Shown: in pieces, positions 19,593-61,638 of the stretch
How the letters are laid out: each line of letters begins with the position of its first letter
How positions within the stretch are numbered: the first letter of the stretch is position 1
DNA from: a virus
Taxonomy: Duplodnaviria; Caudoviricetes
Length of the DNA stretch: 64,000 bases
Virus record (IMG/VR): IMGVR_UViG_3300037851_000141
Coordinates: 256,001-320,000 of that record
Direction: 5' to 3' (one strand)
Program-made: the position numbers and the translations under genes
Notes under the pieces: generated by a model
Databases searched by the model: none
What the model saw: only the letters and a program-made list of their open reading frames with translations
What the model was told of the DNA's origin: nothing

Positions 19593-19713
19593 ACCCGTGT
19601 AGCTCAGATGGCAGAGCGAGAGCCTTCTGCGGAGATTATAGGAATATATTGGGTTCGAATCCCAATCTCTGCTCCAAAGCTCTAGGTCGGAGGTTCAAGT
19701 CCTCTCACGGGCG
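19593..19713 (+). tRNA. Interrupted tRNA, most simply Arg(UCU) (alternative register Trp(CCA)), with a 48-nt insert in the anticodon loop
   Basis: ACCCGTG/CACGGGC acceptor, GCTC/GAGC D stem, AGAGC/GCTCT anticodon stem, GGAGG-TTCAAGT-CCTCT T arm. Deleting 19629-19676 gives the loop CT-TCT-AA. Confidence 0.85.
19629..19676 (+). ncRNA. tRNA-Gly-like minihelix nested in the anticodon loop
   Basis: GCGGAGA / T-TATA-GGAA-TATA / TTGGG-TTCGAAT-CCCAA / TCTCTGC-T-CCA. Confidence 0.8.
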
Positions 19714-19719
19714 CTAACA

Positions 19720-27571: not shown

Positions 27572-28579
27572 TCAGAAGTTCTTATCTAGGATGTTTACGA
27601 AGTTCTTGCGAATAAGAGTTTGTGCTTGTTCTCCGATTCGACTCTTAATGGCTTTTTGTTCATCCTTTTCAAGAGTCTCAAAGCCGGGATTCTCTTTGAG
27701 GAAGTCTTTATGAGCATCCTGCATGAGTCCACCAAGCAACTTACCGAAATCCTTACCAGTAATATCACCAATTTTACTGATGACATTCTTGAGACGATTT
27801 TCGGTAATGAATTGTGAGAATGAATCAAGGAGAGCAATAGCACCTTCAGACAACTTAAGTTCCTCTTTAGGTGGCCGAGGATGCTTACTCTCTTTACTCT
27901 TTTCACTCCACTTATCATTCTTATTCTTGAGGATAACACGACTGCCACAACCAAAGAAAAGAGGCTTGACGGGACGAAGTACAACACCCTCGCAGATATT
28001 TGGAGAGATTGGAGGTAAACCCAATTGCTCTGGAACCTTAGAATCGAACTCATTGGGGTACTTCATGGCGTCTTCAAATGAGCCACAGAATAAGGTCTTA
28101 GCATGAAGGAATCCGAATTGAGCGTACAACTTCTCAACAGTCAAGGCATCTAACCATTGACCATCAGCAACGATATCAAATCCATAGAAATAGTTATTTG
28201 GTCCATAGAATACACCCTTTTGTACTTTGGTTACTCCAGGGACTTTAGCGACATTAGGATGATCGTAGGAACCACCGCAAATCTCACCGTAAAGAGTCAT
28301 TTCCTGGCAACCAAGATGCTTATAAAGTGATTCAATCTTATCTTTATGTGATTCAGCAACACGATTTAGACCATTGAAATTCTCGCCAGGAGCTAAGAAA
28401 CAACTCCGCTTTCCAAGAATGATTTGACCATCTGGAAGCCGTTTGATTTGAGCCGAACTGCCATGTACTTTTTCCCCAACAACCCACTGTCCAGCAGAAA
28501 AGCCTAATTGGACAATCTTGTTAATGGTTTCGGTACGGTAAGCGTTTTCAATGTCAGGGAATGAGACGAAGGTAGGCAT
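27572..28579 (-). CDS. RNA ligase, Rnl2 family
   Basis: VGEKVHG (motif I), LYGEICG, FYGFDI, EGVVLRP, ILKNKN; C-terminal helical domain. Confidence 0.9.
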   Translation of the reverse strand: MPTFVSFPDIENAYRTETINKIVQLGFSAGQWVVGEKVHGSSAQIKRLPDGQIILGKRSCFLAPGENFNGLNRVAESHKDKIESLYKHLGCQEMTLYGEICGGSYDHPNVAKVPGVTKVQKGVFYGPNNYFYGFDIVADGQWLDALTVEKLYAQFGFLHAKTLFCGSFEDAMKYPNEFDSKVPEQLGLPPISPNICEGVVLRPVKPLFFGCGSRVILKNKNDKWSEKSKESKHPRPPKEELKLSEGAIALLDSFSQFITENRLKNVISKIGDITGKDFGKLLGGLMQDAHKDFLKENPGFETLEKDEQKAIKSRIGEQAQTLIRKNFVNILDKNF

Positions 28580-45947: not shown

Positions 45948-47142
45948 ATTTTTGGTAGTTTAGACAGATCCACTTATTGAAACGTTCGGGATCATTGTTC
46001 TTTAGGATATCGTCTTTATATTGGAAGAAGTAAGACCAGAAGATTTTGGGTGCATGCTTTTGAACAGCCATAGCATAATCTTTTTGAGTTGAAGGCTGAA
46101 GTTCCCGTAGAGTTGCTTCCGCTTGTTGAGATTGAGTTAGAAGATTAGCGACTTTGGTTTCGAGAGATTTAGCGAATTCCTTCATAGTGTCAACGAGAAC
46201 AGGAAAGATATCATCAAGAGTATGGTTGAAGAAAGAATCAATAACAACATTACGAGTATGCTTGATATCACCCCCACCTACTGAATGGAGAGATACATAG
46301 CGGTTTGATTTGATTTTCGCAATTGGCTTATTACCTTGATAGACAACAAACCCTTCAGAGTATTCAACACCATCTTGCTCAATGGCTTCAATACCTTTAG
46401 TGTTAACCCAATAGCGAAGATCATCAAGAGTGATAATATCCAGTTCATAAAGCATCTTCTTCCAAGGTAGACGAAGATTAGATGCTCCATTTGAAAGAAG
46501 ATTAATTACTATATCATCAAGAGGATCAACATAAGTCCCGTATTCATTATGCCTTACAGCGAGAAGCACCACTTGATTTTGAGGATACTTGGTGACAATA
46601 CGGTTTTCATTACAAGCAAGTTCAAAGATATAGGTATAGTTAGTATCCAGAAAATTAGCGAGTTGAGTGTTTGAGAGTCCAATAGTCTTGAAGAATAACT
46701 CAGAGAATGAAAACTTATAATCCCCGACATTACCAGTAGGGATTGAACCAAGAGTAGAAGCTTGCCAGTTGTTGGTGATAGGATTATGATAAAGGATAAT
46801 ACAAGACCCATCAACCTTTTCATAAATAGCGAGTTGATTTTTGATAAGATTGAAATCAGCTTCATTGAATATAGGACAGAACCCCTCATGCTGATTAAAG
46901 AACTTATTGAAAGGACGAGCAACATATTTCCAACCAGATTGAGACTGATAGAGAATAGCTCCCCGACATTCAGCAGTCAAGGGTCGAACGAATTTAGCCT
47001 GTAGTTGATCATACTTGAATTGATATAACCCATTGTGAGTATTGACATTTACGCCGAATTCAGTAATAAACTTTTCCTTTATCTCATCCAGAGTAAAGGC
47101 TGAGTTGAAATACTTGTTGAGATATTCTTGAAGTTGAGACAT
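45931..47142 (-). CDS. RNA ligase, T4 Rnl1-like
   Basis: ECRGAIL, ARPFNKFFN, YEKVDGS (motif I), YIFEL, EGFVV, KIKS..Y. Confidence 0.88.
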   Translation of the reverse strand: MSQLQEYLNKYFNSAFTLDEIKEKFITEFGVNVNTHNGLYQFKYDQLQAKFVRPLTAECRGAILYQSQSGWKYVARPFNKFFNQHEGFCPIFNEADFNLIKNQLAIYEKVDGSCIILYHNPITNNWQASTLGSIPTGNVGDYKFSFSELFFKTIGLSNTQLANFLDTNYTYIFELACNENRIVTKYPQNQVVLLAVRHNEYGTYVDPLDDIVINLLSNGASNLRLPWKKMLYELDIITLDDLRYWVNTKGIEAIEQDGVEYSEGFVVYQGNKPIAKIKSNRYVSLHSVGGGDIKHTRNVVIDSFFNHTLDDIFPVLVDTMKEFAKSLETKVANLLTQSQQAEATLRELQPSTQKDYAMAVQKHAPKIFWSYFFQYKDDILKNNDPERFNKWICLNYQKFDWKD

Positions 47143-55877: not shown

Positions 55878-56318
55878 TTATTGGATTTGAATGGTATGAA
55901 TCATGGAGTCTGCGAGTTGGAATTTATGTTCAGATTGGAGTTGAGCAAAGAGAATGGGTCGCATACTAAACACCCGTTCTCTGGCTTTTTCAATAGTGGA
56001 GAACACAGCAGGAACTAGATCCATAACGATATAGACAGTAGTAAGTTGAGATTCAGCCTTTTTAAGTTGAGGATTTCGGAGTTCACAAAAATCATTCCAA
56101 CTACGTATTGCCCAATCAGTATCATGACAGGTGTATGCGGAAGCTAAACATTTTGGGCAATGTACATAAAAACCATTTTCTATGATTATTTCAGGATCAG
56201 GGTGGCCGCAGTTATAGCAGGGACGAGCATCCATGTTGTTTCCTTTACGCCAGTGATTATACAAGAGAATGGAATTAGTCAAGAAAGATTCGTTCCATCC
56301 TCTTATTTTGGGCATCAA
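55878..56318 (-). CDS. Lar-like zinc-binding protein
   Basis: PCYNCG...VHCPKC...AIRSWN; true start probably MDARPC. Confidence 0.55.
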   Translation of the reverse strand: MMPKIRGWNESFLTNSILLYNHWRKGNNMDARPCYNCGHPDPEIIIENGFYVHCPKCLASAYTCHDTDWAIRSWNDFCELRNPQLKKAESQLTTVYIVMDLVPAVFSTIEKARERVFSMRPILFAQLQSEHKFQLADSMIHTIQIQ

Positions 56319-56727
56319 TCACATGCTCTGGAACCCGACGATCAATTGCCCTTTGACTATTGTACATTTTCGCAACACTATCTGAACAAGAAACCGACAC
56401 AACCCGAACCTCATAACCATATTGCTTCGCCAGATTGATATAGAAACTGGCTTCCTTATGGGTCGTATTAGTGTTGTCCACGATGATAGCAGGTTGTCTT
56501 TGCTTCATCAGATCAGTCACCCAATCCTGATTCCACCTGTGAGCCTCACCCAAACGCTTCTGGTCAAACTCATACTTCTCACCACCACTATTGATATACC
56601 AAAAATTGTCAGTCGAACAAATCTGACAGTTGGTTTTCAAGACAGTTTCATAATGAGTCTTGAGTGCTTCGGCAACGAAACTCTTGCCAGACGCCGAAGA
56701 ACCCTGCATGAGTACGAGAACCTTCAT
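56275..56727 (-). CDS. Polynucleotide-kinase-like P-loop protein (Pnk kinase domain / AAA_33)
   Basis: MQGSSASGKS, ICSTDNF, IIVDNTN, RRVPEHVI. Confidence 0.85.
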   Translation of the reverse strand: MKVLVLMQGSSASGKSFVAEALKTHYETVLKTNCQICSTDNFWYINSGGEKYEFDQKRLGEAHRWNQDWVTDLMKQRQPAIIVDNTNTTHKEASFYINLAKQYGYEVRVVSVSCSDSVAKMYNSQRAIDRRVPEHVIDAQNKRMERIFLD

Positions 56728-60005: not shown

Positions 60006-60511
60006 GATTGTACCCCTCCTTGTGGGTTGATGCGCTGATTATACTACCTATTGGAACAGAGTCAAACTATTTTTTCTAGCGTCTTCCCGTTCACAATTCA
60101 TGTTCTTACTGTATATTGGCAACTTGGAAATTGAACTTACTCCATCAATACACTCACAATCATAGTACTTTTTTCCAATCTTCAAGAATACATGATTAGG
60201 CAAATCCTCATACTTCTTAAACATAGTATTATCTAAATCAATACAATCAATAATAGACTTCAACTTTTTCTGAACCAATAAAGCCCATTCCTCACAATAT
60301 CCACAATTTATATCCCATTCAAAATAAGGTAAAGAACGACCATCATCAAACTTAACTGTCGATAATATCTCTTTCGTAGCCTCAACCATAGCACCACGAA
60401 TGATGTCCTGCTTATTCATAAAAAAGAGTATATCATTGAAAATCGGATGTCAATAGGGGGTTTTCACTTGCTTCTAAATGGGTTCATGGTAAGTAATAAA
60501 ATGATAAAAAC

Positions 60512-60546
60512 AAAAAGAGGCTAGGCTTTTACACCTAACCTCTTTT
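60512..60546 (-). terminator. Terminator after tRNA-Lys
   Basis: AAAAGAGG..TAGG...CCTAACCTCTTTT. Confidence 0.7.
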
Positions 60547-60549
60547 ATT

Positions 60550-60852
60550 TGGTGGGACGAGTGGGGTACGATCCCACGACCTAATGCTTCTTACAGACAC
60601 CATCTTTCGATGAGCATTTCTGCTGTCTGCTTGGACTTTCTCTTAATCTTCGGCATTATCCGGTCAGATCCTCCGTGTAAAGTCTCTACACTTGCCCGAT
60701 AGATATTTTACTATCTATCTGCTAGCTCGGGATTGCCATCAGCATTATCTGTTAAGGTTTCCCCGAATTAGCGGAGTTTTCAATTAGGATTTCTCCTAAA
60801 GGTTCCAATTTAGTTCAAAAGGCATTTGCTCTACCTACTGAGCTATCGTCCC
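60550..60852 (-). tRNA. tRNA-Lys(UUU) interrupted by a group I intron after position 36
   Basis: GGGACGA/TCGTCCC-A-CCA; AATGC/GCATT stem; exon join gives CT-TTT-AA; atypical T loop ATCGTAC. Confidence 0.88.
60590..60816 (-). mobile_element. Group I self-splicing intron (tRNA-type, IC3-like), 227 nt, no ORF
   Basis: P1 UUUU|GA...UUGGAA; core CTAATTCGGGGAAACC, GGCAATCCCGAGC, GTGTAGAGACT, AAGAGAAAGTCCA; terminal G. Confidence 0.88.
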
Positions 60853-61638
60853 ACGCTATAAAGTTGTCAATCGTCTTCGTCCTTAGTATTTTATATCATT
60901 TCCAACCGAAGTCAAGCATCTTTTTTCTATCAGTCTCTCAACTTAACTTCATTATACTGGCAATAAACATCAGCACCACCACCGAGAGAAGGAATATGAA
61001 CAAGGCAACCATCATCGTGAATAGAAACAACTGTACCATCAGCAGCAATACGACCCCAATCAGGATCATCGGCATTGACATGAACCTTAGCCCCGATTGG
61101 AATGTAGATCATGTTCTTTCCTTATGCGTCGAATTATATTGCTTGGTTCAGTTAGTCAAGAATCAGTTTTTAACAATATCAACATCCCACTCACAGGCAT
61201 ACTCTTGTTCAGTTTCCTCATCAACAATTCGATCAACACCGACACCATTAGCATGAGCATCCAAAATATTTTTCTTAACATCTTTCATATTGGCAAAAGT
61301 CTCAAAATCAGCATTATCAAAATATACAGTGATAGGCATGGGTTGTCTCCTTATGCGTTGGATTATATGGTCAATGAGAGGAAGTCAAGCATCAACAATA
61401 TCAACATCAACGATTTCAGTGTCGATAACCTTAGCCTCATCACAAGTAAAAGTATAATCCATTTCATTTACAGCATCATGAGGATCAACGTCATCAGCAA
61501 CTTCAAGAATTAGCTGAACCTGAATCTCGACCTTGACCTTGCGTGACATGGGTTTCTCCTTGTTGGGCTTGATTATATGTCCGGTTTAAAGAAGTCAACC
61601 CACTTGACAGTCAGACTAATCCTCGTATAATCCAACCT

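Follow-up and report, generated by a model that had tools for sequence, protein, structure and literature searches.

Phage group I introns known until 2014 all lay in protein-coding genes, despite the many tRNA genes that phages carry (Hausner et al. 2014, PMC3984707), and introns in phage tRNAs were later termed unreported (Devoto et al. 2019, PMC6784885); our literature search found no paper on group I introns in phage tRNA genes. The locus described here, a phage tRNA-Lys(UUU) gene with a 227-nt insert in its anticodon loop, raises the question of what such an insert is, whether a tRNA could be recovered from the interrupted gene, and whether the interruption is of any use to the phage. The gene belongs to IMG/VR record IMGVR_UViG_3300037851_000141 (331,849 bp, rated 92% complete), which also contains a T4 gp23-type capsid gene (325 bits); the host genome is that of a T4-like jumbo phage from freshwater. 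Unless another molecule is named, positions refer to the window, that is, the whole 64,000-nucleotide stretch that was analyzed (256,001 to 320,000 of the record), and all features of the gene and of its intron lie on the minus strand.

The interrupted tRNA-Lys(UUU) gene and its setting

The gene occupies 60852..60550 and is split between U36 and A37 by the 227-nt intron (60816..60590). When introns are allowed, ARAGORN calls exactly this interval (tRNA-Lys c[316550,316852] (ttt) i(37,227), corresponding to window 60550-60852 on the minus strand), and the gene is missed both by ARAGORN in its default mode and by the Rfam tRNA model. The complete gene (60550..60852) would give a 303-nt precursor with an encoded CCA. 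Its 5' exon (60817..60852) comprises tRNA nucleotides 1-36 and ends in C32 U33 U34 U35 U36, and its 3' exon (60550..60589) comprises nucleotides 37-76, running from A37 A38 through the anticodon-stem strand GCAUU, the T arm and the acceptor strand to A73 and the CCA. All four stems are perfectly Watson-Crick paired (acceptor GGGACGA/UCGUCCC, D GCUC/GAGC, anticodon AAUGC/GCAUU, and T GUGGG/CCCAC), such that the spliced product is predicted to be a cloverleaf with anticodon UUU, the anticodon loop CUUUUAA, and discriminator A73. The intron itself (60590..60816) starts with GAACUAAAUUGGAAC and finishes with GUCUGUAAG, with its terminal G at 60590, and holds no ORF in its 227 nt.

The Rfam group I model (RF00028, Intron_gpI) matches 60610-60828 over its whole length, with E-values of 1.7e-11 (local search) and 2.3e-12 (whole genome) and a score of 49.1 bits, which is 0.9 bit below the gathering cut-off of 50 and falls inside the range of 47.8-63 bits obtained for related phage introns. 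Furthermore, the predicted fold of the precursor beats all 100 shuffled sequences (z = -5.0). In agreement with the helices and the covariation described below, these data confirm that the insert is an intact group I intron in tRNA-Lys(UUU); the initial annotation had proposed a group I intron free of ORFs and with an intact core after position 36, and the ARAGORN call, the RF00028 match, and our check of the helices all bear this out.

ARAGORN finds 26 tRNA genes in the phage, among which the split gene is the only tRNA-Lys, standing alone at 316.5 kb of the record, far from the tRNA clusters at 175-200 kb. The codon that it would read, AAA, is used 53 times per 1000 codons in the long ORFs and makes up 70% of their lysine codons. 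Upstream, about 35 nt from tRNA nucleotide 1, a consensus scan returns a predicted sigma-70-like promoter at 60888..60915 on the minus strand (TTGACT, a 16-nt spacer, and TAAAAT; 10/12 matches), a type of match that is no commoner in this sequence than in shuffled sequence. Downstream, a predicted hairpin resembling an intrinsic terminator, with 14 pairs and a T run, begins 4 nt past the CCA (60513..60546, minus strand). The gene thus has the appearance of an independent unit, in which a promoter, the 303-nt precursor, and a terminator follow one another.

A homing endonuclease was found neither within the intron, as had been claimed from the sequence at the outset, nor free-standing beside it, Pfam and PHROGs searches of the flanking ORFs scanned (55.9-63.6 kb) having returned no such enzyme. 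The neighboring 123-aa ORF (60048-60419) has no relatives in IMG/VR. Elsewhere in the window, all on the minus strand, lie genes for a T4 Rnl1-type RNA ligase (46327-46971), an Rnl2-type RNA ligase (27926-28489), and a 150-aa P-loop kinase (56275-56727; AAA_33, PHROG 'polynucleotide kinase'), the three of which make up a predicted T4-like tRNA-repair toolkit.

We note that the anticodon loop is interrupted in four more tRNA genes of the phage, by inserts of 35-48 nt (window 19593-19714, and C1:183007-183123, 197790-197908, and 198848-198953). The insert of the first of these, a tRNA-Arg(UCU) gene, follows UCU at 36/37, takes the shape of an acceptor-plus-T-arm minihelix, and ends in UCCA; the earlier statement that the tRNA-Lys intron occupies the same 36/37 site as this minihelix is correct. 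The accompanying suggestion that interruption goes together with A-rich codons (AAA, AGA) is weak, as five tRNAs of this phage are interrupted.

The body of the tRNA has peculiarities of its own. Its T loop, AUCGUAC (60566-60572), has A54, as first pointed out in the initial annotation, and U58, and is the sole such loop among the 26 tRNAs of the phage; within the T arm (60561-60577; GUCGUGGG-AUCGUAC-CCCAC), the near-universal U54-A58 pair is thereby swapped to A54/U58. In addition, the tRNA has G39, and its D loop has A17. Exact copies of the 20-nt T arm were found in 14 IMG/VR loci (L180-L193), with anticodons UUU, GCC, CAU, and CUA, and four intron-less phage tRNA-Lys(UUU) genes among them (L184, L187, L189, and L191) match both the tRNA body and the T arm. 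Since this arm recurs in intron-less phage tRNAs, and since a relative interrupted at the same site (L294, see below) has a normal T loop, the A54/U58 arm is not tied to the intron, and on comparison of these sequences looks like a circulating phage-specific tRNA variant.

Intron architecture and splice sites

The helices P1-P9b and the cloverleaf stems were checked by script, with the exception of P7, the pairing of which around the bulged A was traced manually. P1 (60803..60820) is formed by exon nucleotides U33-U36 and intron nucleotides G1 A2 with the guide sequence UUGGAA, which puts a wobble pair, U36.G, at the 5' splice site; the UU of the same guide can in addition pair with A37 A38 in the 3' exon as P10, in agreement with the P1/P10 pairing originally put forward. 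P1 is weak, with 6 bp that include 3 G.U pairs, two of them adjacent U.G pairs, and the choice of splice site would thus depend on P10 and the terminal G. P2 is a 6-bp hairpin with a GAAA tetraloop (60784..60799), and P3 (60772-60776 with 60671-60675, CUCCG/CGGAG) encloses P4 to P6b and the 5' strand of P7 (60671..60776 in all). Within this domain lie P4, P5, and P5a (60727-60766), where P4 has the sequence UCGGGG/UCCCGA between an AAA and a CAA junction, then P6, P6a, and P6b (60690-60726), and the 5' strand of P7 with its bulged A (60681-60686). P8 and P8a (60646-60669) are followed by J8/7 and by the 3' strand of P7, AGUCC (60633-60637), which closes the guanosine-binding helix, the whole of this segment spanning 60633..60669; in P7, the pair G169-C219 adjoins the bulged A168. 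The 3' end is a three-way element (60590..60629) of P9, P9a, and P9b, with GAAA loops in P9a and P9b, followed by UAAG, the last nucleotide of which is the terminal G at 60590, directly before A37 A38.

Only one splice register agrees with all of these features, as at 36/37 alone is the 5' site preceded by U while the intron ends in G and the loop, CUUUUAA, has 7 nt. A shift by -1 would give the anticodon UUG and was ruled out because the intron would then end in A, and in none of the alternative registers do all three features (the U, the final G, and the 7-nt loop) occur together. Thus, when we asked whether the splice sites could yield a different anticodon, which the initial annotation had named as grounds for rejecting its proposal, the only fitting register was found to give UUU.

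The intron lacks P2.1, P5abc, and P7.1/7.2, which is the layout of compact bacterial tRNA introns (IC3-like) and not of IA2. It is compact, with a P2, a simple P5, and GAAA loops in L2 and L9, features of IC3 that we aligned by eye with the published seeds of Williams (2020); the P5 motif CCUUAAC..GAUGG and a similar P8 motif are common to this intron and its relatives. We therefore call it IC3-like, a label that rests on the architecture and on likeness to published seeds, with tertiary contacts that are predicted. Assignment to the phage IA2 type (Twort/K-like) was rejected, as BLAST aligns Staphylococcus phage introns with only about 70 nt of the core, at 79% identity, and P7.1/7.2 are missing. 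A second idea that we discarded concerns the AUAAUG hairpin loops of P5a and P8a, two loops that could pair with GCAUUA of the exon and in principle hold the 3' exon: introns whose exons are different, among them the intron of a polymerase gene, have the very same P5 copy, and similar P8 motifs occur in relatives. It is more likely that both loops are tetraloop receptors.

Among the closest known counterparts is the intron of the Azoarcus sp. BH72 pre-tRNA-Ile(CAU) (IC3; 'Ile2.5Ug'), which likewise follows nucleotide 36, is compact and ORF-less, forms P1 from anticodon-loop nucleotides with a U.G wobble, has a GAAA loop in P2 and another in P9, ends in a G, and lacks P2.1, P5abc, and P7.1/7.2; the sequences of J3/4-P4, P7, and J8/7 are very similar in the two. 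The host genes differ, a bacterial tRNA-Ile as opposed to a phage tRNA-Lys(UUU), as does P9, which is here a three-way element with two GAAA loops. Moreover, self-splicing has been shown for the Azoarcus intron and is predicted for the present one.

To examine whether the proposed helices are maintained by evolution, we used an alignment of the tRNA-Lys precursor with a further 23 phage tRNAs from IMG/VR that are split by introns (24 in total), which was left unfitted and onto which the helices were projected. Standard pairs occupy 80.6% of the pair cells, in comparison to 36-49% when the partners are slid by 1-3 columns, and none of 500 shuffles reached any of five covariation measures. P3 shows two-sided changes at all five of its pairs with 90% of cells paired, P2 shows them at all six of its pairs with 76% of cells paired in this unfitted alignment, and in P7 the paired cells amount to 100%, two of its pairs showing compensatory changes; P4 and P5 are 98% and 100% paired, respectively, and the exon stems 98-99%. 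In P6b, P8a, and P9, the members differ from one another and are too poorly aligned for covariation to be read. The tRNA-Lys intron preserves each of the 29 columns without variation in the 24-member alignment, and no sign of decay was seen in its core helices or at these columns.

Relatives of the intron in phages and bacteria

A scan of IMG/VR with the P4-P5 core gave 61 matches in 59 loci, 33 of which (counted as matches) lie inside split tRNAs called by ARAGORN; these tRNAs represent ten kinds, with Leu(UAA) and Arg(UCU) accounting for most. The best match to the tRNA-Lys intron, however, is found outside tRNA genes, in phage G003 (locus L006; 89% identity over 111 nt), where it interrupts the gene of a family A DNA polymerase and is preceded by a LAGLIDADG ORF of 275 aa. 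In a tree of the core (141 columns), this intron and the tRNA-Lys intron are sisters with 97/89 support and 81% identity, and their P3 helices are one compensatory pair apart. As the closest core lies in a polymerase gene, the family is present in both protein and tRNA genes. Of the introns that we compared, that of L006 has the nearest catalytic core; it differs in having a protein-coding host gene, in the endonuclease ORF ahead of its P2, and in its P8 and P9. The polymerase gene of this 210-kb phage (L006:6377-9806, minus strand) in fact has two interruptions, both of which consist of a group I core accompanied by a LAGLIDADG ORF, the two cores scoring 58.7 and 25.7 bits with Rfam.

With respect to tRNA-Lys as host, Williams (2020; bioRxiv 10.1101/2020.01.27.920355) catalogued 21 tRNA-and-site classes in bacteria, and the accessible part of that source includes Lys.2Ug, Lys.3Ug, and Lys.4Ug in its seed alignment. 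These bacterial introns have the same group I architecture and the same location in the tRNA-Lys anticodon loop, which they split after 33, 34, and 35, respectively, in contrast to the intron studied here, which follows 36 ('Lys.5Ug'). Lys.5Ug is not among the 22 tRNA site classes that we counted in the seed alignment, so far as it was accessible. In scanning for more cases, we considered tRNA-Lys genes whose U36 does not stand before A. This yielded Lys.3Ug introns in a large phage (L305 and L308, phage G004), Lys.4Ug introns in large phages (L300, 56.5 bits with Rfam, and L307), and, in phage G002 (L294/L301), an ORF-less intron of 537 nt that shares both the 36/37 site and the guide sequence. 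A Lys.3Ug intron is also present in a Rhizobiales MAG (L239). The initial annotation had described a lysine host as atypical, which is too broad in view of Lys.2Ug, Lys.3Ug, and Lys.4Ug in the accessible part of Williams (2020) and of Lys.3Ug, Lys.4Ug, and Lys.5Ug in large phages; what stands is that the 36/37 site in tRNA-Lys appears, on the same part of that source, to be uncatalogued, and this appears to be the sole new aspect of the host.

The G002 intron resembles ours in its junctions (CUUUU|GAA..AAUUGGAAC ... GUAAG|AA), the GAAA loop of P2, J2/3 (UUGAAAA), and the absence of an ORF, and its host genome (240 kb) likewise has a gp23-type capsid gene; it is unlike ours in its length of 537 nt, with large peripheral expansions, and in the body of the tRNA. 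In the core tree, moreover, the L294 Lys.5Ug intron groups with the L305 Lys.3Ug intron (100/99) and not with the tRNA-Lys intron described here, such that the Lys 36/37 site would have been taken by two different core lineages; given few columns and many open forks in the tree, this is suggestive only. The guide UUGGAA common to L294 and the tRNA-Lys intron may simply be dictated by the exon letters that they share. We also observed that L294 (537 nt) and L305/L308 (about 480 nt), all ORF-less, have near-identical cores in tRNA-Lys(UUU) genes split after U36 and U34, respectively, which may reflect sliding of an intron within CUUUU.

Loose patterns (CTTTT..AAWTCRGGGRAA and CTTTTGAA..AATTGRAAC) searched in viral and metagenome contigs gave chance matches and no further Lys introns among the matches listed, such that absence here is weak evidence. 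We also encountered phage tRNA genes (L291, L302, L303, L309, and L315; L296, L304, and L314) in which the 5' half resembles that of tRNA-Lys (CUUUU) and the anticodon loop contains an insert of 470-590 nt, and the two inserts scanned, those of L303 and L296, had no Rfam group I match at E 0.001. A 355-kb contig (G001, with ends L567/L569) starts and stops inside the intron of a tRNA-Lys-like gene, and joining these ends through a 99-nt terminal repeat completes an intron (L311); we rejected it as a clean Lys.5Ug case because the 3' exon does not fit the 5' exon, the contig ends representing either an assembly chimera of two similar introns or a decayed gene. In the same 355-kb phage, a GOLLD-like RNA match lies beside a tRNA cluster (L311:11285-11692, plus strand; 86 bits against a cut-off of 150, E 7e-21).

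Splicing, use to the phage, and alternative readings

Taking these data into account, we put the probability at roughly three in four that the insert is an intact, ORF-less, IC3-like group I intron that splices itself and is carried as a selfish or neutral passenger, drawn from a pool circulating among large phages. That it splices is inferred from its sequence, and the course of the reaction would be the following. The guide UUGGAA would pair with U33-U36 to form P1 with its U36.G wobble, and a free guanosine bound in P7 would attack after U36; the terminal G (60590) would then occupy the guanosine site of P7 while the UU of the guide holds A37 A38 in P10, and joining of the exons would create the loop CUUUUAA. 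A homing endonuclease gene would either have been lost by this intron or never have been part of it. The phage would tolerate the intron because splicing restores the tRNA that reads its commonest lysine codon. That the intron is neutral for the phage is our assumption, and it may have a regulatory effect on tRNA supply; most likely, nevertheless, it is an ordinary selfish, phenotypically neutral intron.

A score just below the Rfam cut-off, a weak P1, the isolation of the gene from the tRNA clusters at 175-200 kb, and the possible same-site relative L311, in which the exons do not match, could all be taken to mean that the ribozyme is inactive and the gene a tRNA pseudogene. We consider this very unlikely, as no core helix is broken and all family-invariant positions are kept, the exon stems are perfectly Watson-Crick paired with an intact CCA, and the gene is the only tRNA-Lys of the phage and serves its commonest lysine codon. 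The weak P1, together with a minimal periphery, would also be expected of a true ribozyme that requires a phage or host factor, in which case the supply of tRNA-Lys could be tied to the stage of infection, and the predicted promoter of the gene would be in line with this. Many group I introns do need helpers in vivo. However, no protein is needed for self-splicing of those compact tRNA introns of bacteria in which it has been tested (Azoarcus, Anabaena), three GAAA tetraloops and the receptor-like P5 and P8 motifs common to relatives suggest a self-sufficient fold, and no candidate helper gene adjoins the tRNA-Lys gene, such that protein-dependent or timed splicing is in our view unlikely.

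An adaptive role was raised in the initial annotation, which proposed that keeping the anticodon split could delay attack by anticodon nucleases. In such a scenario, the split loop would be buried in P1, allowing the precursor pool to escape PrrC-like or PARIS AriB-like nucleases until later splicing frees fresh tRNA. The two RNA ligases (Rnl1-type and Rnl2-type) and the polynucleotide-kinase-like P-loop kinase fit a conflict over tRNA-Lys, and the tRNA itself has G39 instead of the U39 of the cleaved UAAU motif, as well as A17 in the D loop and the odd T loop; according to published work, tRNA-Lys(UUU) variants of phage T5 neutralise AriB, with position 39 being decisive. Nonetheless, the proposed delay is unsupported because the tRNA, once spliced, is as exposed as any other, and the gain would be at most kinetic. 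Furthermore, the same tRNA body and T arm occur without an intron in other phages, and the intron family, besides a polymerase gene, occupies tRNAs of at least 10 other kinds with no preference for Lys, which fits mobility better than a Lys-specific function. We thus regard a shielding role as highly unlikely, and the least likely of the readings weighed here.

A broader scenario, which we consider unlikely but less so than the three alternatives above, would have the IC3-like family moving freely among large phages, between protein genes and tRNA anticodon loops, and reaching the Lys 36/37 site at least twice independently; in this phage, it would ride on a horizontally acquired tRNA-Lys cassette (with its own promoter and terminator, A54/U58, and G39) that serves, with Rnl1, Rnl2, and the kinase, as a counter-defence against tRNA-Lys nucleases. 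Were such free movement among genes true, it would overturn the textbook view that phage group I introns reside only in protein genes. The selfish, self-splicing passenger that we favor is as a single instance ordinary biology, namely a ribozyme of known type for which the host gene and the site are new, and one of a large and barely described family of phage tRNA introns. With a core near-identical to that of a DNA polymerase intron, it offers a concrete case in which to study the movement of introns between protein and tRNA genes.

Together with dozens of relatives, this locus suggests that self-splicing introns are common in the tRNA genes of large phages. Standard annotation misses split tRNAs, and thus phage tRNA repertoires are under-counted; in the present phage, the only tRNA-Lys is invisible to default tools. 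A cultured jumbo phage provides a related example: in Klebsiella phage Muenster (MT708547.1, ~302.83-303.19 kb; L574 ~614-975), a tRNA that is absent from the deposited annotation is interrupted by an intron from the same group I family. This tRNA lies inside a tRNA cluster, between tRNA-Ser and tRNA-Asn genes that are annotated, and just downstream is an HNH gene. As in our case, the intron follows nucleotide 36 in the genome of a jumbo phage; unlike our case, the tRNA has the anticodon CAU.
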